Below are positions 17,990 through 47,520 of a stretch of DNA of 64,000 nucleotides, in pieces. A model generated the notes under the pieces. It saw only the letters and a program-made list of their open reading frames with translations, was not told the origin of the DNA and did no database searches. The stretch is from Candidatus Adlerbacteria bacterium (GTDB lineage Bacteria; Patescibacteriota; Minisyncoccia; Phycocordibacterales; SBAW01): the NCBI GenBank assembly GCA_028286685.1, contig JAQBRA010000002.1:65073-129072 (forward strand). Reading direction: 5' to 3'. Numbering within the stretch: the stretch's first letter is position 1; the number at the start of each line of letters is the position of its first letter. A program made the translations under genes and the position numbers.

Positions 17990-19519
17990 TTAAACCCCGG
18001 ACGCCACGCCCCTAAAATGCTTCCATATCTCGTACATCGCCAAGGTATCGAGCTTGCAGTACTCGAGCATGTCCTTTTGCTTCTGCTCGGCCTCCTCGCC
18101 CTCAATTAGCGCGCGGGTCAGCTGGCGGTAGCCCTCTATGGCGTCGGTCCCGCTCTTAACCGGCAGCTCTTTGTACGACAAGCTCGGCACCAAGACGGGC
18201 AGCACCTTCTTGATAGAGGCACGGCCCATAAAGCCCGGGTGCACGTAGTGCTGGTGCTCCACAATATCCATAAGGTCGTAGGTGCGCTCCACCACGTTTA
18301 AGAAAAAGTCCTTATGCTCAGGCATCAGCGCGGCCATCTCCTTGTTGCGGCTGTTTTCAAACGCCTTGGACCACGATATAACCGTGCCCTTGGGGCCGAT
18401 ATGCGACACCAGCGCCTCGGCGATCTTTTCCGCCGGGTCGCCGCCCAATATCAGGTCGCCATAATGCTTAAGCTCGGCATCGGGTGCCTCGAGCACGTGG
18501 AGCGAATATTGAAAGACAATATGCTGGTAGGGCCGGTAGCCGCTAAAGGGCGGGATAGCTGTGGGATACGTCTCGTAGTCCAAAAAGTACAGCGGATACT
18601 CAAGCTTGTTTAGCTCCTCGGCAAGCCCCACCACATCAATGAGAGGCTCTTGCGAGAGATGCACGCGGACCTGGTTGAGCTTCTTTTCCGTAAGCCGGTC
18701 GTCATTCAGCGGCACATCCTTAACGTGCAAGACGCCGGCATGCAGCAGCTCTTCGAGATACTTTTTGCTCAGGCCAATACGGTTAAGGTCGTGGACGCTG
18801 TAGGCCGGCACGTCGGGGTTGATAAAGGCAAAGCTCGTGCAGTGCGCCGAGCGGCCCTTGTAGTAGCACGGGCAATGGCCCTCGGGCTGTACCGCCTGGC
18901 TCAGGTACTCTTGCGCATGCTTCATCTGATGCACCGCATTTTCCTGCGCCACCGCCATCGCCTCGGTCTTGTCCTCGAGTATAAAAAGGTTTGAGAAGTC
19001 CAAGTCGCCCTGGCGCACGTACTGCCTATTGAGCCGGACCAGGTACTTTTTATTGAGCTTAACGCCGCACGCCTCGACCACGTTTGCCTGGAAGGCCAGG
19101 TCGTACTCAAACTGCTCCTCTTTTTTCCTGTCCTTCCTGCCCTCTCCGTCCGCCTCAGACGAGGACATCTTTATCTCGTACAAGTCGTACGCCCCGGCAC
19201 CGGCGTTCCATACCAATACGTCGGTAGCGGCCAAGCAGGTGTCGGTGGCAAATACGGCCTGGAATAGTACCGGGGTCTGCTCGGCAACAAGCTTTTGAGT
19301 CAGCTCCTGGGCGCCCGCGTGGCGCTGCTCGATAAGGTAGCCGCCCGGAAACATCCCGCGCGCCAGCTCCTCGACCTCGTTGCCCATTTGGGCCAAAGCC
19401 TGTTCGAACTCCGATATCTCGTACTGGCTGTGTATGTCGGGCCGTTGGCGGCGCACCCAGGTGTTGTTAGGGCACTCCCTAAACATGATGTATTCGGTCT
19501 TGGAGAGCTTGGAGGCCAT
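17990..19519 (-). CDS. DUF2779 domain protein (Cas4/RecB-like nuclease fold)
   Basis: YFLDYETYPTAIPPFSGYRPYQHIVFQYSLHVL signature plus the Cys cluster CPCYYKGRSAHC. Confidence 0.55.
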   Translation of the reverse strand: MASKLSKTEYIMFRECPNNTWVRRQRPDIHSQYEISEFEQALAQMGNEVEELARGMFPGGYLIEQRHAGAQELTQKLVAEQTPVLFQAVFATDTCLAATDVLVWNAGAGAYDLYEIKMSSSEADGEGRKDRKKEEQFEYDLAFQANVVEACGVKLNKKYLVRLNRQYVRQGDLDFSNLFILEDKTEAMAVAQENAVHQMKHAQEYLSQAVQPEGHCPCYYKGRSAHCTSFAFINPDVPAYSVHDLNRIGLSKKYLEELLHAGVLHVKDVPLNDDRLTEKKLNQVRVHLSQEPLIDVVGLAEELNKLEYPLYFLDYETYPTAIPPFSGYRPYQHIVFQYSLHVLEAPDAELKHYGDLILGGDPAEKIAEALVSHIGPKGTVISWSKAFENSRNKEMAALMPEHKDFFLNVVERTYDLMDIVEHQHYVHPGFMGRASIKKVLPVLVPSLSYKELPVKSGTDAIEGYRQLTRALIEGEEAEQKQKDMLEYCKLDTLAMYEIWKHFRGVASGV

Positions 19520-19753
19520 GGGTCTATTGTACGGCCATTAGTGATCCCAAGTGGTACAAAATTGGAACCAGCCTATAATAGGAGAGCTTAGCAGGTGACT
19601 ACTCTTTGGACGGGACCTAAAGGCCGAGTTGGGCTAGTACTGCCATTGGGATTAGAACTATATGTATATCCCCTGCCTTGAGCGGCCGCCCGGCGAAAAT
19701 ATACCCTTAAAAAGGGCCGTTTTTAGCAGTGGTTTTTAGTGCTACATAGGACT

Positions 19754-19759
19754 ATAATG
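19754..19759 (+). promoter_or_regulatory. TATAAT -10 element 10 nt upstream of the kinase ATG (short or absent leader)
   Basis: Seen in the sequence. Confidence 0.3.
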
Positions 19760-19769
19760 GGCCCACGTT

Positions 19770-21830
19770 ATGAACCTAATTGGCAAGGTCGTAAATGGGT
19801 ATGAAATCGTTGAATTTATCAACGACGGAGGTTTCGGCGTGGTCTACAAGGCCGAGAAAGAAGGTAAACTATATGCTCTTAAGCTCTTTCGTGAGGCCTA
19901 TGTACTCAAGGAATATCGCAACGGTGGAGACAATCGCATACAGCGCGAGATAGACATTTTGAAGTCGGCGAACCACAAAAGCCTCGTGAACTACGTGGAT
20001 AACTTCGTCACAGACATTGACGGCTCTGCACACCACTTCCTAGTCATGGAGTTCATTGACGGCACAAACCTGCGAACGATAATCGACGGTAAAGGAAAGC
20101 TCGATGAGAAGACTGCTCTCCAATATTTCAACCAGGTCTTGGACGGCCTAGAAGCCTTACATCACACACCTGTGGCCGAGGGGGTCTCGGGAGTTGTCCA
20201 TAGGGATTTGAAGCCTGAAAATATACTTATTGACGGGGCGGGCCAAGTGAAAGTGTCCGATTTTGGCATCTCGAAAATCATCGATTTTACCTCTATAACA
20301 AGCACAGGTGACTTTATTGGCACGAGCCCTTACATGTCACCCGAGCAGATAGTCGACAGCAAGCACGTGGACCGGCGCTCCGATGTATACGCCCTCGGGG
20401 TACTGCTTTATGAAATGCTGACAGGCCAACATCCTCACGACTATCAATCTGAACCTGAGCTCATAGACAAGATAAAGAACGAACCCGCCATACCACCACG
20501 ACGCAGAGTTGCTGATATAAACAACGAAACCGAAAACGTTATCTTGCGATGTCTTGAAAAGCAACCGTACGGGCGTTTTAGTGACGTCGCGCAGTTGCGC
20601 CAGTCGCTCAACCAAAAGTCTGTCGTACTTACAAAGAAAAAATACGACCTCACGCCGCGATTTGTGCTACGGCTCTACGACGACAAAAGTACCTTGGAGA
20701 AGTACCTCCCCACTCACCAAAGTAAGTTCTTTGTAGAGTTCCCTGCAAACCTTGCCGATCATCAAAAGGGCCTCCTAAAAATTGTGCGTGAAAACAAGAA
20801 TGTGATTATGATTGTCGACCCAGCAACAGTGCGTCTCGCGTACGACACTTTCTCTGATGTCGAGGGTCTAAAACGACTTCCCTACGCAAGGGAGGATTTC
20901 CAGCCCATTACCCCAGACAACTTAAAGGACTACAAGGAGCAGAAGGAGTACGTAAAAAAAGTGCTGGATACAGAAGCAGAAATTGGTGCCGACATCTTAC
21001 TCGCACCCTTTCATTACACACACAATAGTAATATTTCGCTTACAACGGCTAACCCCCATGCCGAATGGTTCGACCTCGACGTGAAGCTTTTAAAAGAGGC
21101 TATCGACTATCGTGATGCAACCCCAGCACTACGTGACAAGCCACTATACGCCGGTATCTGCGTTAATCATACGTCGTTGAGCAACGATCGTGATTTGCGC
21201 CACATACTCAATACATTTTCAATTTTTGATTGCGACGGATACATGGTCTATGTCGATTGCATAGACGAAAACACCTCTCGCGCCACACTATCCAACTACA
21301 TCACTCTCTTGCGGGAACTCCAGTTAAAGACTGGGAAGCCGGTTATTGCCGCACGGGTAAATGGAATTGGTCTCGGCTTATTGTGCGCCGGCGTGGCAGG
21401 CTTTACCTCTGGCGCCGCACGCTTTGAAACCTTTAACGAGGACTTGTACAAGGTGGAGAGGCCATCTTTCAACCTGTACGAGCGCTACTATTACCCCACA
21501 CTGATGAAAGCAGTTGCCATCTTGCGCAAAGACCCCGCCCGTTTCGACCTCATTCGCGACAAAATAGGAATATGTACATGCCGTTATTGCGGCGGCAAAG
21601 ATGCAGCAGGATCGATACTGGCGGCAAATAATAAACTCCACTTCCTCGAAATGCGCGCTCAGGAGGTAGCGGAAATCGCTGCCTTGCCCGAAGGCGAACG
21701 GATCGGGCACTTCATCCAGAGAATAAGTACAGCGTTGGATAATTACGCTCTGCTCACGCCGAGCGTCTTTAAGCCATCCGACTATGCACACCTCAACGGT
21801 TGGAAAGATGTCTTTCAGAGGCTAAAATAG
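19770..21830 (+). CDS. Ser/Thr protein kinase fused to an uncharacterised ~400-aa C-terminal domain
   Basis: Kinase motifs are present: VYKAEKEGKLYALK (VAIK-like), HRDLKPENIL, DFG, SPE. Residues ~290-686 match no family I recognise; they alternate beta and alpha segments and contain a CTCRYCGG motif. Confidence 0.8.
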   Translation: MNLIGKVVNGYEIVEFINDGGFGVVYKAEKEGKLYALKLFREAYVLKEYRNGGDNRIQREIDILKSANHKSLVNYVDNFVTDIDGSAHHFLVMEFIDGTNLRTIIDGKGKLDEKTALQYFNQVLDGLEALHHTPVAEGVSGVVHRDLKPENILIDGAGQVKVSDFGISKIIDFTSITSTGDFIGTSPYMSPEQIVDSKHVDRRSDVYALGVLLYEMLTGQHPHDYQSEPELIDKIKNEPAIPPRRRVADINNETENVILRCLEKQPYGRFSDVAQLRQSLNQKSVVLTKKKYDLTPRFVLRLYDDKSTLEKYLPTHQSKFFVEFPANLADHQKGLLKIVRENKNVIMIVDPATVRLAYDTFSDVEGLKRLPYAREDFQPITPDNLKDYKEQKEYVKKVLDTEAEIGADILLAPFHYTHNSNISLTTANPHAEWFDLDVKLLKEAIDYRDATPALRDKPLYAGICVNHTSLSNDRDLRHILNTFSIFDCDGYMVYVDCIDENTSRATLSNYITLLRELQLKTGKPVIAARVNGIGLGLLCAGVAGFTSGAARFETFNEDLYKVERPSFNLYERYYYPTLMKAVAILRKDPARFDLIRDKIGICTCRYCGGKDAAGSILAANNKLHFLEMRAQEVAEIAALPEGERIGHFIQRISTALDNYALLTPSVFKPSDYAHLNGWKDVFQRLK

Positions 21831-21838
21831 CAGTAAGC

Positions 21839-22495
21839 ATGTTCCAGCTTGAAAAAGAGATGATTCCGGTGCTCAAAAGGGATCTATCGAGGATCTTTGG
21901 TGCAGTTCACGCTGCCGAAGAGTTCGTAAGCGGGAACGGTCGTCCAGATTTAGTATTTGCTCGTTTCACAAGCGAGACGTCCTCACGAGGCGCACTTGAT
22001 TACGAGACCCTCCACCTGCTCGTAAGACATTTAAATAAAGAAGGGCGCGTGTACCATGTGGACGAAGTGCTTGGAATTGACCTGCAAAACAGAAAGCGGG
22101 TACATGGCATACTCGATGTGTTGAGCAACTATGGCTTTGTGGAGTACCAAGACGACACCCATTTCATCGTCCGGAGGAAGTACCAACCAGTGGCAGACGA
22201 ATTTGTTTCGATAGAGGCAAAATTAAGTGACTGGAAGTCTGGTGTCAGTCAGGCCATAAGATACAAGTCTTTCTCTAACAGCACGTACCTTGCCATTTCC
22301 GAAGAATATTTAGACCGTGTAGATAGGCAAACCTTGCGCGCCAGCGGCGTTGGGCTTATTAGCGTATCAAGGGAGAATGCTTCGCTTATTTTAAAGGCAA
22401 GAACAAGTAAACCTAAAAGTATGGTATCCAACTACTACCTTACTGAACGCCTCGTTGACACAGTAAACAGTTCTCGAGCTAGTGCAATAGTTTAA
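21839..22495 (+). CDS. hypothetical protein with a PD-(D/E)xK-like motif set and a possible winged-helix tail
   Basis: GRPDLVFARF...VSIEAKLSDWKSGVSQAIRY resembles restriction-endonuclease-fold D...ExK...Q spacing. It lies just after the kinase gene. Confidence 0.35.
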   Translation: MFQLEKEMIPVLKRDLSRIFGAVHAAEEFVSGNGRPDLVFARFTSETSSRGALDYETLHLLVRHLNKEGRVYHVDEVLGIDLQNRKRVHGILDVLSNYGFVEYQDDTHFIVRRKYQPVADEFVSIEAKLSDWKSGVSQAIRYKSFSNSTYLAISEEYLDRVDRQTLRASGVGLISVSRENASLILKARTSKPKSMVSNYYLTERLVDTVNSSRASAIV

Positions 22496-22596
22496 GCTTT
22501 TTTGCGTATCATTTTGTGGTCAGTAAGGAAACCTATTCCCAAGGCGACAAGTCATCCGAAACGGCGCATGTAAAGAGAACAGGGAGTGCTTCTTGA

Positions 22597-22935
22597 TTAT
22601 TTCAATGTCTCGCAAGCAAGACCGTCTTTGTCCGCGTCGAGACGGTGAGGGTCAGAGCTAGGGCCGCCATTTGCAATAAAGAAGGCTTGCGCTTGTGCAT
22701 GCGTAGCAAAGTCAGGGCAGTTTTTGTCGACAAAGCCCGATTTAGCTGCAGTCTTGGCGACAGTCTTTGTAACTACCTTTGCCTCAGTTTTAACCGCAGG
22801 CTTGCTGTGGCAGTGGTAGTTTCCTGTTTTGCTCTCGGTATGGCAGCCTTTTGCGTCGGTGCGGCCGGGGGAAGCCAACGCCACCGCCGGAGCGATGGAA
22901 ATGGCGAGTACTAAACCGGCGAGCAGGGTGCGCAT
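22597..22935 (-). CDS. excalibur calcium-binding domain protein (secreted)
   Basis: Signal peptide and a C-terminal DADKDGLACE motif. Confidence 0.5.
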   Translation of the reverse strand: MRTLLAGLVLAISIAPAVALASPGRTDAKGCHTESKTGNYHCHSKPAVKTEAKVVTKTVAKTAAKSGFVDKNCPDFATHAQAQAFFIANGGPSSDPHRLDADKDGLACETLK

Positions 22936-22936
22936 A

Positions 22937-23152
22937 TTAGCCAATGGTGAAAGCAATAACGAGTGCAGCACCAAAGACGACCGCTGCCATAACGATTGCT
23001 ACAGCCATATTGCCCTGCCTAAGCTCCTCCCACTCGTTAATAGGGGTAATGAAGGAGAACAATTTAACCAAAATACCAAGGGAAATTGCCATCGAGATGG
23101 CGCCAGTAATAGCCCAGCCGAACGTTATAAAATACTGTGTAAATATGTCCAT
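22937..23152 (-). CDS. DUF350-like small membrane protein
   Basis: Two TM helices flanking NEWEELRQGNMAVAI. Confidence 0.4.
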   Translation of the reverse strand: MDIFTQYFITFGWAITGAISMAISLGILVKLFSFITPINEWEELRQGNMAVAIVMAAVVFGAALVIAFTIG

Positions 23153-23206
23153 GGCCCCAGAGTAGCAAATGTGGCGGATTTAGCTACCTACTTAAACTAA
23201 TATTGA

Positions 23207-23235
23207 CATAATAAACTTATGTATGTAATGTATTC
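23207..23235 (+). promoter_or_regulatory. sigma70-like promoter (TTGACA-N17-TAATGT) heading an ORF-poor stretch
   Basis: Seen in the sequence. Confidence 0.35.
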
Positions 23236-23702
23236 GCTGGCTGTTCCCTTTCGTCGGTTTGTCTAGTTGAGCCCCGAAAGGGGTTTCAGCTGCAATATCG
23301 ATGGAGGTATAAGATGGACGTTGTTCAATGGTTCTGTAGTAGCAGGAGTAATATGGCTGTTTGGTTGTGTAGATTCCTTGGGTGCGAGGTAAAGCATAGC
23401 AATCCCTCTCCCGTGGTTATACCACCCCTACCAGTTCCTCTTGTTACAAGACCACTGCCAAGCTCGACTTGTCTCAAGTCGTACTGCAGATGCAACCCCC
23501 ACCTTTGGATTTTTCATCTGGTCATGCAGCATCCTGGGATTAATACTCCTGGCATCCGTCGCAAGATGGGCTGCTACTGCACAGATAGAATTATTCAAGG
23601 AATCTTAGTCGACCTACGGACACAAGGGTATGTACGTATGCACGGCTACGGCCGATGGTCTACGTACTGGCCCAATGCCGTTCTGGTCGACAAATAGCCA
23701 AA

Positions 23703-23737
23703 CCGCGCGCTGCAAGGCGCGCGGTTTTTATTGTTTT
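23703..23737. terminator. hairpin terminator (CCGCGCGC-tgcaag-GCGCGCGG + T-run)
   Basis: It ends the plus-strand noncoding stretch and abuts the stop codon of the minus-strand DUF2726 gene. Confidence 0.5.
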
Positions 23738-24261
23738 AGAACCAATTTCTTTTCTACCTCCCCTTTTATAGCTTCCTTATCCAACTTATCGGCTCTTAAG
23801 TGCAAAATGGATACGCCAGCATCAGCCATCATGCTATCTACGAGGTCGTCCCTATCCATCCGACGAGGGATAGAGTGGCTGCCGCCATCTAGTTCTATAA
23901 CTAGTTGAGGCGCCGCACGCTCTTTGTCGCAGAGCAAAAAGTCGACCGATTTCCTATCTATCCGGCTTCTCAGCCTCATCCGCTCGCGGTAATCAAAGTC
24001 CTTGTTAGGCTCGATAAAATGAGTAAAATTGACCTGGGCAAATATATAAAACCTGTCGCCATACAGCTCAAGCAAAATCTTGTACATCTCAGCCTCAGTC
24101 TTGGTATCGAAAATTGAGGCCTTCTTATTAAAATATTTAACAGCCTCTTCTTTGCTTTGTATGAGCAAGGCTAAAGCAACCAATCCAACAAGAAGCACTG
24201 CGGTAATTGCCCAAACCCACCAAGGGATATGAGGCAACCCAAGTAATTCAAAAATGGACAT
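23728..24261 (-). CDS. DUF2726 (nuclease-related, restriction-endonuclease-like fold) protein with an N-terminal TM
   Basis: KSVDFLLCDKERAAPQLVIELDGGSHSIPRRMDRDDLVDSMMADAGVSILHLRADKL matches the DUF2726 core. Confidence 0.55.
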   Translation of the reverse strand: MSIFELLGLPHIPWWVWAITAVLLVGLVALALLIQSKEEAVKYFNKKASIFDTKTEAEMYKILLELYGDRFYIFAQVNFTHFIEPNKDFDYRERMRLRSRIDRKSVDFLLCDKERAAPQLVIELDGGSHSIPRRMDRDDLVDSMMADAGVSILHLRADKLDKEAIKGEVEKKLVLKQ

Positions 24262-24262
24262 A

Positions 24263-24484
24263 CTACTTAGCTAAAGGGCCATTATGAGTGGGCGCCTCTG
24301 TAGTCTTCTTTGAGACTATCGGGATATCTTTGCGAGTGTTTTCATCTATCTGCTCAAGCAAACTTACTATCCTATTTGTTTTCCAGTACCAAGTGAGCAA
24401 CTCTCTTACTACAAAAAAGCCTACAAGCACCAAAAAGACGAACAAAAGCGGGTCGGTCCCAAAACTTGGGAGGTTTAGATTCAT
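24263..24484 (-). CDS. small membrane protein
   Basis: One TM helix. Located 1 nt downstream of the DUF2726 gene. Confidence 0.3.
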   Translation of the reverse strand: MNLNLPSFGTDPLLFVFLVLVGFFVVRELLTWYWKTNRIVSLLEQIDENTRKDIPIVSKKTTEAPTHNGPLAK

Positions 24485-24601
24485 GCCACCAGTATATCCC
24501 CGTATGAAGGACTCAATATTACGATGTGCACAGCTACTGATTTAATTACGTAAACAAAAAACCGCCTCACCGAGAAGGTCCCGGTGAGGGGAGGTCTTCT
24601 G

Positions 24602-25216
24602 CTAGTGGGCGGTCAATAACACTCTTCTGCCCGTGCCGAGAATATAGGGACGCGAGATCGGATCGTTGTCCCATTCCTCATTGCGTCGCTCTGCCCTCTC
24701 CTGCACTTCGTCCATGCACATATCAATGAGCCACTGTGGTAAAACGAAGCAGCCATACATGATACGGGTCTCGTCGTAGTACCGAACTTGTCCGTACTCG
24801 ATGGCCCGAATGAGGGTATGAATGAACGCATTGAACGCCCATTCGACGCAGTGGTTATGATCTGGGAGGAGGGGACCTCCGCGCCGATCATGCCCCTTTG
24901 CTACGTCTCTCGCCCAAGCGGCCATATACGATACCAACTGTGCATCGACGGGTACGAAATCTTTAGTGGCAAACGCCTTCTCGATTGCACTGAAGAAAGC
25001 CTTGCCCAGCGGGTCGGGCGGCAACTCCTTAAGGGAGCTTAGGTCCGCAGTTCCGTATTCCTGCACCAAAACATAGTCCCAGAGACGCTTTATGTTAGCT
25101 TCTTCATTATCCCAAAAGCGCATGATGTGCTCTTTTCTCAAACCCCCTTTGTTCGGCAGAGGGTAAAACCGTACTATAGCTTTTTCTATTATATACCAAA
25201 ATATATATTTTGTCAA
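24602..25216 (-). CDS. hypothetical protein
   Basis: The ORF has protein-like composition. I cannot recognise the family. Confidence 0.35.
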   Translation of the reverse strand: MTKYIFWYIIEKAIVRFYPLPNKGGLRKEHIMRFWDNEEANIKRLWDYVLVQEYGTADLSSLKELPPDPLGKAFFSAIEKAFATKDFVPVDAQLVSYMAAWARDVAKGHDRRGGPLLPDHNHCVEWAFNAFIHTLIRAIEYGQVRYYDETRIMYGCFVLPQWLIDMCMDEVQERAERRNEEWDNDPISRPYILGTGRRVLLTAH

Positions 25217-39436: not shown

Positions 39437-39916
39437 TTACACATTTCCAGCAAGTTTTTCAGCATAACCACTAAGTTCTATATTAGGATTTAGTTGTTTA
39501 AGATCTTTAACAAGTCTACCAAGAGTTTTTTCTGAAAACAGAGTGATGCGAAACTCAATATACTTTATACTCCCATCCTGGTCTTTATAAAAAATATAAA
39601 GGGACCGAAATGATCCTTTAGCTGTTTTATAAGTTGCCTGGTCATTGATTTCAGTTATTGAGTCGATATTAACGGTTCTTCGATAAAAAAAGAGATAGAC
39701 GTATGTGAGAGTGTTGTTTGTGATAGATGCATATGAATAACAAGTGGTAATAAGTAGAAAAAAGGCCCAAAATATTACCCAAATTAATAGCCCCTTAATA
39801 GCGACATCCGTACCAAGATCAGGGTTACGGTTTAGATATAAAGTAAATGCCATTAATACACCAGCACTAACTCCAATCATAAGAATACTCTTCCAGTCAG
39901 TAGTATACTTTTTCAT
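39437..39916 (-). CDS. membrane protein directly downstream of the RHS toxin gene and overlapping it (candidate cognate immunity protein)
   Basis: Three to four TM helices. Its start overlaps the toxin stop codon by 4 nt. Confidence 0.45.
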   Translation of the reverse strand: MKKYTTDWKSILMIGVSAGVLMAFTLYLNRNPDLGTDVAIKGLLIWVIFWAFFLLITTCYSYASITNNTLTYVYLFFYRRTVNIDSITEINDQATYKTAKGSFRSLYIFYKDQDGSIKYIEFRITLFSEKTLGRLVKDLKQLNPNIELSGYAEKLAGNV

Positions 39917-42900
39917 TTTTTATCATTCTTAACCTTAAAAGCACTCATGAGATTTTGGACTGCCTTTGCTTGTGTTGAATTTGTAGGAGCAAAAGCATTT
40001 CGAATACTCGAAAAGAGTGAAGCTTGAGACTGTCCACCTTGGTACATTTGACCTGCATTACTTTGAACATTTCCATAGTAAGTATCAATACCTACTCCAA
40101 AGGCAGCCTCTTGCGCATACCGTTGCGCATGAGCACCAGTATAATATGTACTTCCTAGAACTTTAGTGGCTTGTACTCCTCTTACCTGAGGGAGACCTTT
40201 TAGATAACCAGCCGTCAACCCAGTGACTGCTCCATCAGCGACAGCTTGCACTGCACCCTCTGGAGTAATGGTGCCATTTTGCAAGTAGTTTTCTCCGAGG
40301 GAAATGGTGGAAGCTGTTCCTGCGCCCGCCCACGGACTTACAGCTGTAGCAAGTCCTATAACTGCTCCCTTACTCATTGATGTGCCGTATGCTCCAAAGC
40401 CACTAAATTGGCCTGATTGGAGATCAGAAATACCTTGGTATATACCTCCTCCAATACCACCCAGCACGAAACCAGCCGCGAGCACTTGAGGGATAAATCG
40501 TCCAGATGGATCCTTATTAAGGATCGGATTATTCCCTGCGTAAGAATAACTATTCTGTAGTTGAGGATTGATAAGCGCAGCCTTTCCGTCCTGAGTCTGC
40601 CCTATCTCCCAGAAGACTGGGTCTTGGCTCAAGAACTGACCACGTCCCCCGTCGTAATAACGTGCATTTAGATAATTGAGCCCCGAGAGCTCGTCCGCCA
40701 CCTCCCCTATATACTCCCGCTGGCTCACGTCCGTGCCAGTTTCTGCCTGTACCGAGCCGAAGGGATAGTAGGCCAGGGATTGGACCGGAGCGCCACTCTG
40801 GTCGGTTACCACATGGGTAGAGCCCAGGTGGTCGGTGTGTATGTACCGGGTAGTGCCCCCTGCCCCGCCGGAGATGCTTATCAGGCGTATATCGTCGTAG
40901 TAGACCGTGCCGGTGGAGTCCTTTTGGAACACGAAGCCCGTGGTCATCGCGCCTGCGATGCCCAAGTCCGCTAGCGGGATGTCTATGCTGTACCAGGTGT
41001 TGGCCGCTATGGTGCCGCCGGAGACGTAGGAAGAGAGCTGGACCGTGTTGGCCGGAGAACCGCCTGAGTTGTAGCCGATGACTTGCAGGAGCGGCGAGGC
41101 GGAGGTGGAGCGGAACGCCAGGCGCAGGTGAGTAGAACCTACCGTGCTTATGCCCGCATTATGAAGATATAGCCCGCCCCACGCTTCGGTGTACGTAACC
41201 GCTATGGAATTAGAGCCTGCGTATGTCGGACTGGTATTGCTGAAGTTCTGCGTCGAGCCCCACGACCAGTTGTCCCATGAGGTGGTATCGGCGTAGATAG
41301 TCTGGGTTGTGGAAGCCGTGGGCGACCCAACGCTCGCGGATGATTTTTCCACGGTCGACACCAGCATGCCGGCGGCGTAGATGTTCTTAGTAGTAGTGCC
41401 CGCCCCGCCCGCCATGGCGCTATAGAGCCTGTTGGGGAAATAGGTGGTCTTTGAGCCCTCAACCAGCTTGATGCGGCTGCTTTCATGATCGTAGGAGTAC
41501 GTGGAGGTTGCCGTGCCGCTGCCCGCGCTTGCGAGGCGGTTGGCATAGTCCCATGCGTAGGCAAATCCGCCGCCCGAGGCAAGGTTGCCGTTGTTGTCGT
41601 AGGCATAGGTAGAGCTGGCGATGCTTGTAGGCGCGTGAGGATTAGCGTAGCCAGTGCCCGCGTACGCATACGCTCCCACGTCGGACTTGGCAATAATATT
41701 TCCCAAGATGTCGTAGTTGTACGTCTGCGTATAGCCGCCTGAGGCCGTGGACGTGCTTGTCGAGCCTACGGACCAGAACGAGGACGGCGACGACATGTTG
41801 TTGTAACGAGTCGCCAAATAATTGTCGCTGCGGGCCGCACTATGCACGCGTATTTCGTCCAAGCGCCCATCAAGGCGCTCGCCGCCCGCGTAGTCGGCAC
41901 CAAAGCGCAGGACGTCGTTGGAGTTAAAGGTAGTGCCGGGCGTATCGGCCGTATAAGTATTGGCGCTCGAGCCGTTGGCGCGCACCGACGCCTCTGCAGT
42001 GGTGCTGGCCGGGTCGTGGCGCAGCGCGACATAGTACCAGGTGCCGGTTGCCATAGAGCCCGCATAGGTGCCCGCGTACGAAGTGCTGCTGGCAGCGCTT
42101 ATCCATTCGCCATCGAGCCGGTTAGTCGGGCTCGATACGTATGAGGAGTAGGAGCGCCAAGGCGAGGCAGTGTGCTTCTTGCTGATGAGCCGGGCATTTT
42201 CGCCACGCGCGCTCGGCGTCGCATCCATATATACCCAACCCTCAAGCGTCATGGACGCTCCTTCAAAATTGCTGCTATCGGGCACGTCGATAGTGTCGTC
42301 GACACCATCGAAGTTGGCAGCGGCGCCGAACTTGCCGGTAGTGGTACCTATGGCTGACGCCACATAGTTTGAATACATGGTGCCGTTATGGCTTCCCGAG
42401 GTTGAGTCTTTGATAGCTCCCCCGGTAGCGCTATTTTCCTCCAAATGCCAGACGCCCTCAGTATCGGAGTCATACACCTCCCGAGCTCCATAAGTGTTGC
42501 CCGCAGAATAGCAGTTAGCATCCGGGTTGCCGTAATAGACGTAGTATTGCGCAGACGAACTCGCAGAAAGGGCGTTGCCGGTCGAGAAGTGGAGCTGCCC
42601 TGCTCCGGCACCATAGGACACCAGGTCTATGGGCAGCTCAGTCGTGCCGTCTTGCTTGGTTACGCGGATATCGCAGCCATTGGCTTTGACCCCGGTATGG
42701 AAGCTTATAGGCAACAGCGACAAGTCGAGATAGACGTCTTTAGTATCTTCCAGCACCTTGGTAGAGCTGGCTGCCACCGGCACGCGATAATCCCAGTTCG
42801 GGTCGTACCAATCGGAAGAGGGGCCGACTGCATACTGTGCCTGAGCCAGACGGTACAAATCATCGTAATCGTAACTTGCTGTTTTTGGCGCTGTAGAGCT

Positions 42901-45900
42901 TGCCAGGTCGGAAATCTCCACAATATTGCCGACAGGGTCGTAGGTATAGTTGAAGTCCTGGAGGGTAAGGCCGGAGGAGTTTTTTGCCTGGACTCGCGAA
43001 AGTCGGTAGAGCGCAGCGGCATTATAGGTGCTGGTAGAGACATCGCCGTTGGCGTATGCCACGACCGCAGGCTTGCCCGTAGGGGCGTAGTCAATCCGCG
43101 TTACAACGCCCGCAAAAGAAGGCTCTCCGCTTTCTTTCTTCTGTACGGCATCAACAAGCCCGGCAGCATTATAGAAGTACGCAACCTGCGCCTGGTCGGG
43201 ATACGTCACGAGCGTCTGATTGCCTTGGCGGTCATACTCATAGGCAGTTGCAAATGCGGTCGTAGTACCGACCAAGGTTGAAGTAGCAGCCCTAACAAGG
43301 CCCGCAGGATTATATGCATATTGGACAAGAGAGTTGGTGGAGCTTGCCGTGCACAGCCTCCCTACCCCGTCTTGGCAGGAGTCATAGACGTAGGACACCT
43401 CCGTACCCGCCTGACCCGTGTAATTTTCTGATACGGGACGATTGAGCACATCGTAGGAATACTGGACCGTTTGGCCCTTTGCATCGATTTTTTGGGTAAG
43501 ATTGCCCGCCGCATCATAGCTATAAGTGGTCGAGCCGAATGAGGCATCTGCCGGAGCATGGAGATCTCCCGCAGAAGTGCGCCGGCCGAGGCCGTCATAC
43601 GCAAAGCTGCGCACATTGCCCGCAGCGTCGGTCAGACTCACAAGACTGCCCGTAAGATCCCACGCATAGGTAGTGGTATACGGCGTCCCCGAAAGATACT
43701 CAACAACGCTTATAAGATTGCCGCGCGCGTCTTTTGTATATTCTTTTGCCTTATCATTAGCGTCCGTAGTGGTAGTCTTCCATTGGTCATAGGCATTGGT
43801 GGTCGTGCCCACGGCAGTCCCAACCCCCACCGCGCGCTGGAGCGGATCATACAGGTAGTTCGTGTAGAGCGTCCCAATCGAAGTGGCAGAGGAACGCGAG
43901 GAGCCCGAGGCAAAGTACGGCAAGCTTTCGGAAGACATGAGGCCCCTCCGGTCATACTTCCAATCCCTTACTGCAAACGTGCCCGCAACCTCGGCTTGCG
44001 AGCGCTCCTGGAATTTGCGGTTTAAGCCGTCAAAATACGTATAGCGCGAGGTGGTTGTAGCAGCGTTTAAGTACCTAGTTTCCTCTACGCTGGTGGAGCC
44101 CGGCGTGCTGCTGGCGCTGTACGCATAGGCAGTCGTAGTAGCGAGCGTACCAGTTAAAGGATCGGGCTCTTGCACAGCGAGCACCCTGTCCAGACCATCG
44201 TAAGCTTTTACATGCAGGCGCCCGTTGGGATCGGCAATCTGGCGCACCTGGCCGGAAGAATAGTCGTACAAATACCCGGTTGCCTGACTAAGCGCGTTGG
44301 TGGTAGTCGCTGGATACAGGTTGAACGCATCATAGGCGTAGGCTGTAAGATTTGACTTGGCGTCACGCTCCTGAGTTACCAGGCCATAGGTACCGTACAC
44401 CTTGGTGGTAGACGCGTAGGCAGAAGCGGCAATCCAATCCTCCTTTTTAGTCAGATTACCTTTGACCAGACTGCCAAGCGTCTGGTTGTCATAGTAATAG
44501 CGCGCCTCTTTTATTTTGGCTCCGCTCTGATTATGCGTAAGCTCGCTTGACGGAAGACCGACAAGAGTCGAGCTCGCCGCGTAGGAGATAGTCGTTGAGG
44601 CAAGATCGCTGCCAGTATCGCTAAAAGTGCCGTCGCCCGAGCCGGTTACCTCGCCCCAGTCGATCTTTTGAACCAGGTTACCATTGGTATTGTTGTAGGC
44701 ATACGAGACAGCCTTGTCTTTATGGTCGGAATCACCGTCATACTCCTGCTCGAGTGCCTGTGTTGTTTTGACGAACCTAGCTTCCCCGCCACGGTCATGA
44801 GTCTCCCACTTATTTATATTTGACTTAAACAGGTCGCCGGAACTATCGGAAACATCCGTACGGAATACTTTGCCTATCTTTGAGCGGTCGTCAGAGTATT
44901 CTCCCAAAGAAGATTCTGAGGCATTGCCTTGGTGATAGCGGGTAACGACCGTATCCCCTACTGCATCAGTCTTGGTTATAGACCCAAAGCCCGCAATGCG
45001 CCTATCAAACGGATTGTCGAAGTAAAAGTCACCGTCTGCGTACTCGAACGTATCGGTACTGGTCGCAGAGAGACCGTCACTGATTTCAACCTTCTCAAGG
45101 GTCGTTAGTGTCGCTGGAAGCGAGGGATTGAGCAACTCATCGCTGTCATCCCTGTATTGCGCACTGCCTTTGTAGGCCACACTAATAGTGCCGCCTGTCT
45201 GATTAATCACCCGGGAGAGCAAGTCGGGTTCCTGGCCCTGGGATATAAATTGACTGTCCTGCTCCCAGGAATAGAAATGGGGCTGGCCCCAACCATACGC
45301 GACAAAATCGGCAATACCGTCGCCATTAAGGTCTGCAAACCGCACGCCGCCTTCTTGTCCGCTGTGCCGCAGCGCGACAGGCGCCCACCTGGAGTGATCT
45401 TGAATAAACCCAATGCCAGTATTGAGGTAAACGCTATTTCCCAGCCAATGAACAACCGGAGGGGTTGGATACGGCCCCACCTGAGCCTCGCTTGAGACCA
45501 CATCGGGCAAGCTATCTCCATTTATATCCACCAGGCGCGCAGATTGGCCGCCTATGTCTCCCGGCAACGACCACGCAGGATCAGATGACCAGCCTGAGCC
45601 GGTATTGATATAAACGGAACCTTCTTGTGTTAGGTCGGCAAGATTGTCGCCATTGATGTCGGCCACCTGGCCGCGACTATTACCGTTATGGTTACTGTTT
45701 CCAAAGAGTATAGTTGTTGTCGGGAACGCCCACCCAACAGCCGTGGTCCAACCAGCCCCCGTATTGAGATATATGCTTTGCGAGTATGTTGTAGCCCCAG
45801 TGAAGGCGTTTATATTTGCGAAAGAGCGCAACACGTCAATCAATCCGTCGCCATCTATATCGCCGAAGCGCACGCCATTATCATACAAGCCCTCGAATCT

Positions 45901-47520
45901 TATACTTAAAGGCAACGACCATGCACTTGCCGACCAATTGCTACCGGTATTGAGATATACATTCGTGTCGCATATGAAATCAGGCAGGAGGTCTCCGTTG
46001 ACGTCCGCTAGCCGGCCTCCCCCATCGAATAAATAATTGTTAGATTCGAGATAGGTGAACGTGCACGGAGGAGTCCAGCCCGAGTCGAGAGTCCAACTCT
46101 CGCCGTTATTTATGTATACATGGCGATAAACGTCATAACCATTCCTACCGTTCCACGCATCATAAGCTTGCACCTCATCTGCAAGCCCGTCGCCATTAAT
46201 ATCGACAACATTGACGCCCTTATCCCAGCCATCTCCGACGAAACCAGTAGCCATAGGCTGGGTCCACGTAGTCGTGGCCCACGTTTTAGAAGACTCCGTA
46301 TAACCAAAGGCTGTCTGCGGCAAAGCGATCGGCGTAGAACTTCCTTCGGCCTGGCCTGCTTCTGTAACACTGGCTAATATAAGCCTGGAATCGTTGTCCC
46401 CAGCACGATAAGTAAGAGTATAAGCATGAACAGTATCGCCACTCACCTTGGCTGTGATGGCGTCTATCTTGTATTTGGTCTTTACCGTAAAACCGGTAGC
46501 AGTAGAAGTGGCTGTGGAAGTGGCACGCAAACTTTTGGCAAAGTCGACTGAAAATATGCCTGTACTAGAGCCGCTGCCCGTATAGGAAATTGATGCCGGA
46601 TAGATTTGGCCGGAATCCTTAGAATAAGAGTAGATTATCGTGTTGCCGTTAGAGTCCGTTACCTGCTGCAGCATCCATTTAAATATTCTCCCAGAGTTAC
46701 CTGGATCATCCTGCCTCCCGCTGGTTGAAGTGCCGAAAAGATACGTTTTGCCGGTTTTATCCGTTACAGTCCAAGCATTGCCACTGAATGAATAAGACAA
46801 ATTTGAACCATCATCATCGCGCGCCACAAACAAGGTCGAAGTTGAAGTTGTAGCCAACTCGCCCGACATCGAGGAGGAGAAATAGACCGGCGACGTCGTC
46901 GCGTACAGCGTACCGAGGCCTTTTTTGTTTATGCGCTCAATATACGGGATAGGCATATCCCAACCATATCCGTAAAAATCGTCGTCATGGTGCGATTGGG
47001 ACGAGTACACAAGCTTAAGATCCGGCTCCATGCCACTGCGCCCTGGCGGCACCTTCAGCGGGACCTGGTAGAGATACGCTCCCGTATATGATTCGGATGA
47101 GCTGTCCGGCACGCTCCCCAGCGCAGCACTTTGCCTGATAAATGAAGGCAGATTGTCGTCAACGGCGCTTGCCGAACTAAGCGACTGGGGTTCAGGAGTG
47201 AGGGAGTCCATTGACTCAACCGTGGAGGGTTCTGTAAAACTTTCCTCAAGGACTGATTCCTGCTCTGTCGGCGAACTAACAGGAACTGCCGCCGGTTCAA
47301 TAATCGGCCCTTCTTCTATGGGAAATATTGGGTCAGGCAGCGGACTTGTCTGAAATTCAGGTATTTGAACTTGCGAAGAATTCGGGGGGATAATTTCTGC
47401 CTCTTGGGCATACACTTGCACTAAAGGCGTGCCTGCCAAAGACAAAACTAAGCCAAAAGCAATTGCGCGAACCAAAAACTGACCGGGAGTTGCGCGGAAA
47501 GAAATGCCTCCTCTGCTCAT
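39913..47520 (-). CDS. RHS/YD-repeat polymorphic toxin with N-terminal FG-GAP-like repeats, a LamG-like domain and a glycine-rich C-terminal toxin domain
   Basis: Signal peptide; repeated D(I/V)NGDGL(A/P)D motifs; many YD repeats such as YAYDAFN and YSYDAAGNL; the RHS core end YSYAGNNPILNKDPSGRF; and a ~190-aa tail with GGIGGGIYQG and VIGLATAV glycine-zipper-like segments. Confidence 0.85.
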   Translation of the reverse strand: MSRGGISFRATPGQFLVRAIAFGLVLSLAGTPLVQVYAQEAEIIPPNSSQVQIPEFQTSPLPDPIFPIEEGPIIEPAAVPVSSPTEQESVLEESFTEPSTVESMDSLTPEPQSLSSASAVDDNLPSFIRQSAALGSVPDSSSESYTGAYLYQVPLKVPPGRSGMEPDLKLVYSSQSHHDDDFYGYGWDMPIPYIERINKKGLGTLYATTSPVYFSSSMSGELATTSTSTLFVARDDDGSNLSYSFSGNAWTVTDKTGKTYLFGTSTSGRQDDPGNSGRIFKWMLQQVTDSNGNTIIYSYSKDSGQIYPASISYTGSGSSTGIFSVDFAKSLRATSTATSTATGFTVKTKYKIDAITAKVSGDTVHAYTLTYRAGDNDSRLILASVTEAGQAEGSSTPIALPQTAFGYTESSKTWATTTWTQPMATGFVGDGWDKGVNVVDINGDGLADEVQAYDAWNGRNGYDVYRHVYINNGESWTLDSGWTPPCTFTYLESNNYLFDGGGRLADVNGDLLPDFICDTNVYLNTGSNWSASAWSLPLSIRFEGLYDNGVRFGDIDGDGLIDVLRSFANINAFTGATTYSQSIYLNTGAGWTTAVGWAFPTTTILFGNSNHNGNSRGQVADINGDNLADLTQEGSVYINTGSGWSSDPAWSLPGDIGGQSARLVDINGDSLPDVVSSEAQVGPYPTPPVVHWLGNSVYLNTGIGFIQDHSRWAPVALRHSGQEGGVRFADLNGDGIADFVAYGWGQPHFYSWEQDSQFISQGQEPDLLSRVINQTGGTISVAYKGSAQYRDDSDELLNPSLPATLTTLEKVEISDGLSATSTDTFEYADGDFYFDNPFDRRIAGFGSITKTDAVGDTVVTRYHQGNASESSLGEYSDDRSKIGKVFRTDVSDSSGDLFKSNINKWETHDRGGEARFVKTTQALEQEYDGDSDHKDKAVSYAYNNTNGNLVQKIDWGEVTGSGDGTFSDTGSDLASTTISYAASSTLVGLPSSELTHNQSGAKIKEARYYYDNQTLGSLVKGNLTKKEDWIAASAYASTTKVYGTYGLVTQERDAKSNLTAYAYDAFNLYPATTTNALSQATGYLYDYSSGQVRQIADPNGRLHVKAYDGLDRVLAVQEPDPLTGTLATTTAYAYSASSTPGSTSVEETRYLNAATTTSRYTYFDGLNRKFQERSQAEVAGTFAVRDWKYDRRGLMSSESLPYFASGSSRSSATSIGTLYTNYLYDPLQRAVGVGTAVGTTTNAYDQWKTTTTDANDKAKEYTKDARGNLISVVEYLSGTPYTTTYAWDLTGSLVSLTDAAGNVRSFAYDGLGRRTSAGDLHAPADASFGSTTYSYDAAGNLTQKIDAKGQTVQYSYDVLNRPVSENYTGQAGTEVSYVYDSCQDGVGRLCTASSTNSLVQYAYNPAGLVRAATSTLVGTTTAFATAYEYDRQGNQTLVTYPDQAQVAYFYNAAGLVDAVQKKESGEPSFAGVVTRIDYAPTGKPAVVAYANGDVSTSTYNAAALYRLSRVQAKNSSGLTLQDFNYTYDPVGNIVEISDLASSTAPKTASYDYDDLYRLAQAQYAVGPSSDWYDPNWDYRVPVAASSTKVLEDTKDVYLDLSLLPISFHTGVKANGCDIRVTKQDGTTELPIDLVSYGAGAGQLHFSTGNALSASSSAQYYVYYGNPDANCYSAGNTYGAREVYDSDTEGVWHLEENSATGGAIKDSTSGSHNGTMYSNYVASAIGTTTGKFGAAANFDGVDDTIDVPDSSNFEGASMTLEGWVYMDATPSARGENARLISKKHTASPWRSYSSYVSSPTNRLDGEWISAASSTSYAGTYAGSMATGTWYYVALRHDPASTTAEASVRANGSSANTYTADTPGTTFNSNDVLRFGADYAGGERLDGRLDEIRVHSAARSDNYLATRYNNMSSPSSFWSVGSTSTSTASGGYTQTYNYDILGNIIAKSDVGAYAYAGTGYANPHAPTSIASSTYAYDNNGNLASGGGFAYAWDYANRLASAGSGTATSTYSYDHESSRIKLVEGSKTTYFPNRLYSAMAGGAGTTTKNIYAAGMLVSTVEKSSASVGSPTASTTQTIYADTTSWDNWSWGSTQNFSNTSPTYAGSNSIAVTYTEAWGGLYLHNAGISTVGSTHLRLAFRSTSASPLLQVIGYNSGGSPANTVQLSSYVSGGTIAANTWYSIDIPLADLGIAGAMTTGFVFQKDSTGTVYYDDIRLISISGGAGGTTRYIHTDHLGSTHVVTDQSGAPVQSLAYYPFGSVQAETGTDVSQREYIGEVADELSGLNYLNARYYDGGRGQFLSQDPVFWEIGQTQDGKAALINPQLQNSYSYAGNNPILNKDPSGRFIPQVLAAGFVLGGIGGGIYQGISDLQSGQFSGFGAYGTSMSKGAVIGLATAVSPWAGAGTASTISLGENYLQNGTITPEGAVQAVADGAVTGLTAGYLKGLPQVRGVQATKVLGSTYYTGAHAQRYAQEAAFGVGIDTYYGNVQSNAGQMYQGGQSQASLFSSIRNAFAPTNSTQAKAVQNLMSAFKVKNDKK

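Follow-up and report, generated by a model that had tools for sequence, protein, structure and literature searches.

A 64,000-nucleotide stretch of the 196-kb Candidatus Adlerbacteria bacterium contig JAQBRA010000002.1 (metagenome-derived assembly GCA_028286685.1, positions 65,073 to 129,072 of the forward strand), hereafter called the window, contains two adjacent genes that recur as a pair in many bacterial phyla. The first (gene 1) encodes a Ser/Thr protein kinase that is fused to a domain with the predicted fold of tRNA-guanine transglycosylases (TGTs), and the second (gene 2) encodes a small protein with a PD-(D/E)xK nuclease fold. The two genes make up an operon that is complete in itself and has been transferred horizontally, and which is most likely, though by no means certainly, a defence cassette directed against phages or other mobile elements. 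A preliminary description of this DNA had proposed an undescribed defence-type locus of three genes that combines a kinase with nucleases. Its kinase/nuclease pairing is supported and indeed strengthened by the analyses reported here, but the unit has two genes and not three.

The three open reading frames (ORFs) on which that proposal was based are all recovered by ORF calling in the window. One of them is located on the minus strand (17990-19519), the other two on the plus strand (19770-21830 and 21800-22495). The product of the first contains a Pfam DUF2779 domain (residues 311-435, E = 2e-38). When compared to the sequences in the Protein Data Bank (PDB) it gave no match, and the label 'Cas4-like' that it had received is unconfirmed. 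We then asked which of these genes occur together elsewhere. Scanning one genome per species with a profile of the C-terminal domain of gene 1 yielded 45 loci from Patescibacteria, Bacteroidota, Ignavibacteriota, Chlorobiota, Calditrichota, Firmicutes, Proteobacteria, Planctomycetota and Acidobacteriota, and from one metagenome-assembled genome (MAG) labelled 'archaeon'. A homologue of gene 2 is found directly downstream of the kinase fusion, and on the same strand, in 43 of them, and the remaining two loci are cut off inside the kinase gene by the end of the contig. The distance between the kinase stop and the conserved start of gene 2 ranges from -8 to +18 nt in the loci where this start can be placed. 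Moreover, the divergence of gene 1 and that of gene 2 from the window copies are correlated (r = 0.88). DUF2779 homologues were detected in none of the 45 related loci, and the locus of the closest relative (87% identity) does not contain one either. The neighbours of the pair in this relative are genes for a serine recombinase, for a SMODS cyclase together with DUF6602 and for a coupling protein of the TrwB type, and the window copy shares none of them. Likewise, the other genes on the low-GC island of the window (Excalibur/YHYH, DUF350, DUF2726 and a 204-amino acid ORF) have no homologue in any of the 45 loci, and all-against-all clustering of the flanking ORFs did not reveal a third conserved gene within +/-8 kb. 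The MAG labelled 'archaeon' carries a full cassette of ~47-50% identity on a contig of 3.4 kb (L018, WSZW01000157.1), which reflects either a transfer between domains of life or an error in binning.

The base composition was measured along the window. A low-GC block extends from 19520 to 25216 and has a GC content of 0.479, compared to 0.58 in either flank. Its left break coincides exactly with the intergenic region between the DUF2779 and the kinase-fusion gene. The kinase-fusion gene has a GC content of 0.485 and a GC content at third codon positions (GC3) of 0.56, and the corresponding values for gene 2 are 0.463 and 0.48. The DUF2779 gene (GC 0.575, GC3 0.78) is host-like and therefore lies outside of the block. 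Thus, the AT-richness that had been attributed to a locus of three genes is real, but the block excludes DUF2779 and extends ~2.7 kb further to the right than 22495. Since DUF2779 is absent from all 45 loci and has the composition of the host, it is not part of the unit. The transferred unit consists of the kinase fusion and gene 2, and DUF2779 is a host neighbour. It is consequently extremely unlikely that the DUF2779 nuclease, the kinase fusion and the small nuclease act as a three-gene system, an idea whose sole support is the adjacency and divergent orientation of the genes in the window and which is at odds with a composition break that separates DUF2779 from the kinase gene.

The divergent intergenic region of 250 bp and its TATAAT, which had been noted before, are present, and the hexamer is found twice (19574-19579 and 19753-19758). 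In the entire window TATAAT was observed 16 times with ~19 copies expected, which amounts to no enrichment, and a sigma-70 scan of 19520-19769 gave no full match to the -35/-10 consensus. For the latter reason the region is only presumed to contain the promoter of the cassette. The second TATAAT stops 11 nt short of the kinase ATG, and there is no obvious Shine-Dalgarno-like sequence ahead of gene 1 or gene 2; the transcript of the cassette may thus lack a leader or begin only a few nucleotides before the start codon. The 31-nt overlap between the kinase and the small gene in the preliminary description, in contrast, is an artefact that results from using the first TTG as the start codon. Gene 2 starts with the ATG at 21839: the first two residues encoded from there (M1-F2) do not vary among 28 homologues, and the protein on deposit, which has 218 amino acids, begins at this codon. 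The kinase stop codon (21828-21830) and the start of gene 2 are therefore separated by 8 nt. The coordinates of all features are compiled in Table 1.

Table 1. Features of the cassette and of other parts of the window (aa, amino acids; res, residues).
Feature	Position	Strand	Basis or remark
Divergent intergenic region (250 bp), left edge of low-GC island, presumed promoter of the cassette	19520-19769	+	GC 0.476
Gene 1, 686-aa fusion of Ser/Thr protein kinase and predicted TGT-fold domain	19770-21830	+	ORF; identical to deposited Candidatus Adlerbacteria protein
Hanks-type Ser/Thr kinase domain, res 11-274	19800-20591	+	Pfam Pkinase, E = 4e-52
Predicted (beta/alpha)8 barrel of the TGT fold plus zinc/helical subdomain at the C-terminus, res 291-686	20640-21827	+	AlphaFold2 model, zinc motif
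D350-P351-A352-T353 motif closing barrel strand 3, with candidate general acid/base Asp	20817-20828	+	Strand order (inference)
E553, candidate counterpart of the nucleophile (E. coli D264)	21426-21428	+	MAFFT and hhalign, tentative
Predicted zinc-binding motif C602-x-C604-x2-C607...H624	21573-21641	+	Aligns with E. coli Tgt C302/C304/C307
Gene 2, 218-aa PD-(D/E)xK nuclease-fold protein with inserted winged helix	21839-22495	+	Fold, D...(D/E)xK motif
Predicted metal-binding D37 of gene 2	21947-21949	+
Winged-helix insertion, res ~45-117, fastest-evolving part of gene 2	21971-22189	+
E126-A127-K128, corresponding to (D/E)xK in the nuclease motif	22214-22222	+	Invariant in 28 homologues
Excalibur/YHYH-domain protein	22597-22974	-
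DUF350 membrane protein	22937-23152	-
DUF2726/DUF559-type PD-(D/E)xK-like protein, N-terminal hydrophobic segment	23728-24261	-	Also matches phrog_14167
73-aa ORF and 204-aa ORF	within 22597-25216		No family
Small ORF downstream of RHS-type gene	39437-39916		No family
2,535-aa RHS/TcdB/SpvB-type polymorphic-toxin-like protein	39913-47520	-

Gene 1 had been described as a Ser/Thr kinase that is fused to a large domain. The Pfam search confirms the kinase, and the remainder of the protein falls outside of known families. Homologues of ~680 amino acids are present in many phyla, and an alignment of 28 fusions shows that the kinase motifs K38, E60, H144-R145-D146, N151, D164-x-G166 and P191-E192, as well as T177 in the activation loop, are invariant. 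Judged by its sequence, the domain is a Hanks-type kinase whose catalytic motifs (Lys, HRD, DFG and APE-like/SPE) are predicted to be intact.

Residues ~300-686 of gene 1 belong to no family in Pfam, NCBIfam or PADLOC. In Pfam and NCBIfam searches, no TGT family was returned for this domain at E <= 0.1, its profile did not match any PDB sequence, and a comparison with PHROGs did not yield a family either. Thus, it is correct that the domain cannot be placed in any sequence family, as had been stated before, but it can be placed by its fold. An AlphaFold2 model of residues 291-686 (mean predicted local distance difference test, pLDDT, 84; predicted template modelling score, pTM, 0.86) shows eight beta/alpha units that are followed by a helical subdomain; by its predicted structure this is a divergent TIM barrel of the tRNA-guanine transglycosylase type (TGT/DpdA/Cap10). 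The domain is not one of housekeeping metabolism. Its sequence identity to the TGT/DpdA superfamily is ~12-13%.

A local hhalign run against a profile of eight Tgt sequences was non-significant (Prob 0.8%), and runs against E. coli Tgt alone as well as global runs aligned just short stretches, again non-significantly. The mapping of catalytic residues is tentative for this reason. MAFFT and hhalign nonetheless concur on the register of the non-significant alignment to E. coli Tgt across the C-terminal half of the domain, where GADIL of the cassette family is paired with GSDIV of E. coli Tgt, CDGYMV with FDGYAV, GKPV with DKPR, and SGAARF(E/D553) with RGIDMF(D264), the latter including the nucleophile. 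Moreover, the zinc cysteines of the cassette family are aligned with those of E. coli Tgt. A tgt gene was sought in the examined sequences as an internal reference, and none was found.

C602, C604, C607 and H624, the residues of the predicted zinc site, are invariant in the 28 fusions and 77-98% conserved in the stand-alone relatives described below. According to a study of DpdA, three aspartates, each at a strand end, are invariant in both TGT and DpdA: the general acid/base on strand 3 (D95; D102 in the TGT of Z. mobilis), the base-reading residue on strand 4 (D130; D156 in TGT) and the nucleophile on strand 8 (D256; D264 in E. coli). The candidate for the first is D350 in the DPxT motif. 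This motif is invariant in the fusions, and D350 is kept in 34 of 35 fusion and in 46 of 57 stand-alone representatives. It occupies the strand-3 position by strand order, whereas MAFFT and hhalign align the TDSGG of TGT not to D350 but to a segment that is not conserved. The base-reading Asp on strand 4 is missing; the fusions have P413-F-H415 and the stand-alone forms P-(F/Y)-(F/L), without any conserved acid. For the nucleophile, finally, there are two candidate positions, T546/S547 where the strand ends and position 553, which is always acidic (E/D). The latter is found six residues further on in a loop of low pLDDT, which, together with the hhalign probability, makes its equivalence to D264 tentative. 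The barrel as a whole is highly conserved, with a mean column identity of 0.675. Based on the model, the domain thus appears to have kept the TGT fold and the zinc site while its base pocket was remodelled, and catalysis by it is possible.

For gene 2, the earlier assignment as a small PD-(D/E)xK-like protein is borne out by the fold and by the D...(D/E)xK motif. The protein has a restriction-endonuclease-like fold, an intact predicted active site and a variable winged helix. It was not assigned to any family in searches of Pfam, NCBIfam, PADLOC and PHROGs. The nuclease motif is also retained in the partners of stand-alone TGT-like genes.

These stand-alone genes were found in an exhaustive profile search of 1.84 billion representatives, which recovered 373 clusters at 50% identity. 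The best 149 of the 373 cluster representatives include 57 stand-alone TGT-like proteins as well as 35 kinase fusions that are nearly complete. The stand-alone proteins have ~380-430 amino acids, contain nothing but the TGT-fold domain and are not matched by any Pfam family. A homologue of gene 2 (E = 6e-13 to 7e-36) adjoins each of the eight stand-alone members that were sampled, three of these being fragments at contig ends. In P0205, P0213 and P0202 the nuclease gene precedes the TGT-like gene and there are only these two genes, and in P0222 a fragment of the small protein at the contig end lies upstream of the TGT-like gene. P0201 has an extra DUF3800 gene in addition to the nuclease and TGT-like genes, and in P0209, P0211 and P0218 the TGT-like gene is followed by a PIN_3 gene with the nuclease gene in convergent orientation. 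Reciprocally, distant homologues of gene 2 adjoin a kinase fusion, or one that is truncated by IS21. Since the stand-alone members carry a gene 2 homologue and have PIN, DUF3800 or nothing as a third module, the conserved core consists of the TGT-fold protein and the PD-(D/E)xK-winged-helix nuclease, whereas the third module can be exchanged, the kinase being one option among several. In type VII retrons, DUF3800 is known as the RNase H2-like effector module. One distant match of 557 amino acids (P0314) lacks a small-protein neighbour and was placed outside of the family. An unusual site is occupied in L057 (6001-8302) and L058, where the ribosomal-protein cluster is interrupted between rpsJ (S10) and rplC (L3) by three genes, namely a stand-alone TGT-like gene, a PIN_3 gene and, in convergent orientation, the nuclease gene.

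The cassette and its relatives are recurrently located among defence genes and mobile elements. In six loci the cassette is found inside a type I restriction-modification (R-M) operon with the gene order hsdM - cassette - 166-amino acid ORF - hsdS - hsdR, and the cassette or a relative also directly follows hsdR. It also sits between type III mod and res, beside a type III system with an integrase, and directly after an Eco57I/MmeI-type enzyme, a Mrr nuclease or a YhcG nuclease. Further neighbours of the cassette or its relatives are SMODS and DUF6602 with a serine recombinase, RelA_SpoT with Abi_C, and NTP_transf_2/HEPN. One stand-alone relative resides in a prophage, with lysis genes on one side and a recombinase on the other. 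R-M subunits are the most frequent families among 140 flanking ORFs, and integrases, recombinases and insertion sequence (IS) elements are found among the neighbours as well. Some copies are decayed: the kinase fusion is split into fragments in L040, L042 and L043, and in L075 (1858-4990) an IS21-family element (rve and IstB) truncates the fusion, the last 231 residues of which remain beside an intact small gene. Cultivable carriers of the cassette include Sulfurospirillum barnesii (P0118), Marivirga aurantiaca (L024) and Paraflavitalea speifideaquila, whose copy (L042) looks degraded. A conserved ORF of ~160 amino acids without a Pfam family, which is located between gene 2 and hsdS (L021, 9819-10301; also L025-L028), could be an extra component of the subgroup that is embedded in type I R-M operons.

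Some of these features would also be expected of a selfish module, either of the addiction or toxin-antitoxin (TA) type or resembling a homing nuclease, that has no dedicated anti-phage role. The cassette is small, tightly coupled and patchily distributed across phyla, it inserts within operons, including those for ribosomal proteins and hsd genes, its neighbours include integrases, recombinases and IS elements, and the PIN partners are classic toxins. We consider this explanation improbable. Neither tRNA genes nor att-like or terminal repeats were found at the borders of the island in the window, the cassette does not have a recombinase of its own, and a strongly conserved kinase fusion of 686 amino acids is untypical of an antitoxin; TA modules and defence systems overlap anyway. 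We are even more doubtful that the fusion is a housekeeping signalling or RNA-modification enzyme, that is, a kinase-regulated paralogue of tRNA transglycosylase with a DNA-binding partner. The TGT fold and the intact zinc site suggest tRNA binding, the sequence is highly conserved, and at some loci all neighbours are housekeeping genes. However, the distribution is sporadic and not lineage-wide, the composition is foreign, the flanks differ in each lineage, and there are pseudogenised and IS-disrupted copies. Moreover, the kinase can be swapped for PIN or DUF3800, embedding in R-M operons recurs, and the active site of the nuclease that is the obligatory partner is intact. A housekeeping role is thus very improbable.

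A number of observations weigh against a function in defence. Many loci are flanked by housekeeping genes, and the six loci embedded in type I R-M operons are closely related and may go back to one or two events. No relatives were detected when the fusion profile was compared to the viral contigs of IMG/VR, the cassette was not found in PHROGs, and PADLOC 2.0 detects the kinase domain only. In addition, an identity of ~50% across phyla is an unusually high conservation for defence genes, and the residue mapping to TGT is tentative, as it depends on alignments that are non-significant.

From the gene pairing, the folds, the motifs, the mobility and the contexts we infer a defence function, a ligand and an order of events, the last with much less confidence than the first. 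In the sequence of events we favour, the TGT-fold domain would bind, and perhaps chemically act on, foreign DNA or tRNA, and this nucleic-acid event would activate the fused kinase. The kinase would phosphorylate host or phage proteins, possibly including the partner nuclease, and the nuclease, guided by its winged helix, would cut nucleic acid. The outcome would be restriction or abortive infection. The zinc subdomain supports the binding of nucleic acids in TGT enzymes, and the zinc site is gone from Cap10, the target of which is a protein. That the cassette protein has kept it favours a nucleic-acid ligand. A more specific version, which is possible but on the unlikely side, holds that the TGT-fold domain has enzymatic activity towards a substrate not seen before in this fold. 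In this case it would catalyse base exchange or excision on phage DNA or tRNA, or act on a nucleobase-protein conjugate as Cap10 does, and this reaction would trigger the nuclease and the kinase, or PIN and DUF3800 in the sister cassettes. If true, this would be a new kind of immune sensing that is based on nucleobase chemistry and occurs across at least 373 protein clusters.

A different use of such an enzyme would resemble R-M. The TGT-fold enzyme would replace or excise a base in host DNA and thereby mark self, the nuclease would restrict unmarked DNA, and the kinase, PIN or DUF3800 proteins would serve as regulators or second-line effectors. The minimal form of the cassette does consist of a nuclease and this enzyme, and DpdA, which inserts preQ0 into DNA, provides a precedent. 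We nevertheless judge it unlikely. Unlike in dpd clusters and type IV CBASS (cyclic oligonucleotide-based antiphage signalling system), no gene for the biosynthesis of 7-deazaguanine or another base is linked to the cassette, and where TGT and DpdA have their invariant base-reading Asp, the cassette family has P-F/Y-H/F/L. Moreover, the cassette is often located within complete R-M operons that already mark self, and the conserved barrel shows no sign of specificity diversification.

If the anti-phage or anti-mobile-element function is confirmed, a widespread unannotated family will join the prokaryotic immune systems, with 373 clusters in bacterial phyla including Patescibacteria and in one archaeal-labelled MAG. 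The TGT fold would then have a third, independent immune role after DNA modification by Dpd and deazaguanylation by CBASS Cap10, in this case coupled directly to protein phosphorylation. The combination of a constant core with swappable modules offers a natural handle to distinguish the sensing from the executing part. Current tools would report the cassette as 'Ser/Thr kinase' or mislabel it as PD-T4-6, and neither the TGT-fold domain nor the partner nuclease would be noticed.

Beyond the cassette, the low-GC island (22597-25216) contains small genes that are unrelated to the cassette and do not recur beside it elsewhere (Table 1). At a distance from the island, the C-terminal tip of the RHS-type protein and the small ORF downstream of its gene are found in the deepest low-GC patch of the window (GC 0.35-0.40 at 38-40 kb). 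They look like a swapped toxin tip and its immunity gene.

How does the cassette compare to known systems? The gene 1 domain has the barrel fold and the CxCxxC...H zinc site in common with TGT, QTRT1/2, ArcTGT and DpdA. It differs from TGT and DpdA in that it lacks their base-reading Asp and has no match to Pfam TGT or to the PDB. The Dpd system includes linked genes for the preQ0 pathway, DpdB and DpdC, none of which is linked to the cassette within +/-8 kb in the 45 loci. Cap10 of type IV CBASS is a TGT-family enzyme that handles a deazaguanine-protein conjugate. Its zinc site and its surface for binding tRNA have been lost but the base-reading residues (D-S/D/K) are kept, whereas the cassette protein retains the zinc site and lacks these residues. 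Furthermore, the partners of Cap10 are the QueC-like Cap9 and a CD-NTase, neither of which is present in the cassette. In a census of the flanks, 7-deazaguanine genes, Cap9, CD-NTase, DpdB and DpdC were not among the most frequent families. The literature searched, whose coverage is incomplete, contained no fusion of a kinase to TGT and no combination of TGT with this type of nuclease; the TGT proteins it links to defence are those of Dpd, type IV CBASS and systems related to BREX (bacteriophage exclusion).

The kinase half resembles PD-T4-6 and MAD6 of the methylation-associated defence system (MADS), and the respective PADLOC models match gene 1 with E values of 1e-68 (PD-T4-6) and 5e-64 (mad6), in both cases over residues ~5-291 only. 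PD-T4-6 was rejected, as even the PADLOC models of 450-547 positions do not extend beyond these residues. MAD6 and PglW were rejected as well, with NCBIfam scores of 142.5 bits (cutoff 460) and 61.8 bits (cutoff 990), respectively. Thus, with matches that are limited to the kinase and scores that stay well short of the curated cutoffs, gene 1 cannot be assigned to PD-T4-6 or MAD6. In a published survey, PD-T4-6 models label the housekeeping PASTA kinase in every Streptococcus thermophilus genome that was analysed. The PADLOC models PDLC04039-04064 (PD-T4-6) act as generic detectors of Hanks kinases, which in the window match the kinase domain only (19770-20640). Automatic 'PD-T4-6' calls on the cassette family would mislead for this reason. 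None of PD-T4-6, MAD6, BREX PglW and Stk2 has been described with a TGT-fold domain or with a nuclease of the gene 2 type. Kinases of the Stk2 type act as effectors of an abortive infection response, and we use this as a working analogy, in which the kinase of the cassette might play such a part.

The anticodon nuclease PrrC is embedded in the type I R-M locus EcoprrI. The cassette has a similar habit when it lies between hsdM and hsdS/hsdR, after hsdR or in type III mod/res, although R-M embedding applies to a minority of its loci and there is no kinship in sequence or fold to PrrC. By analogy, a fold that binds tRNA would be in keeping with a mode of action like that of PrrC. Finally, retrons, the core components of which are unrelated to those of the cassette, are built in the same way as the cassette family in that they combine a constant core with swappable effectors, such as DUF3800, HEPN and protease modules.

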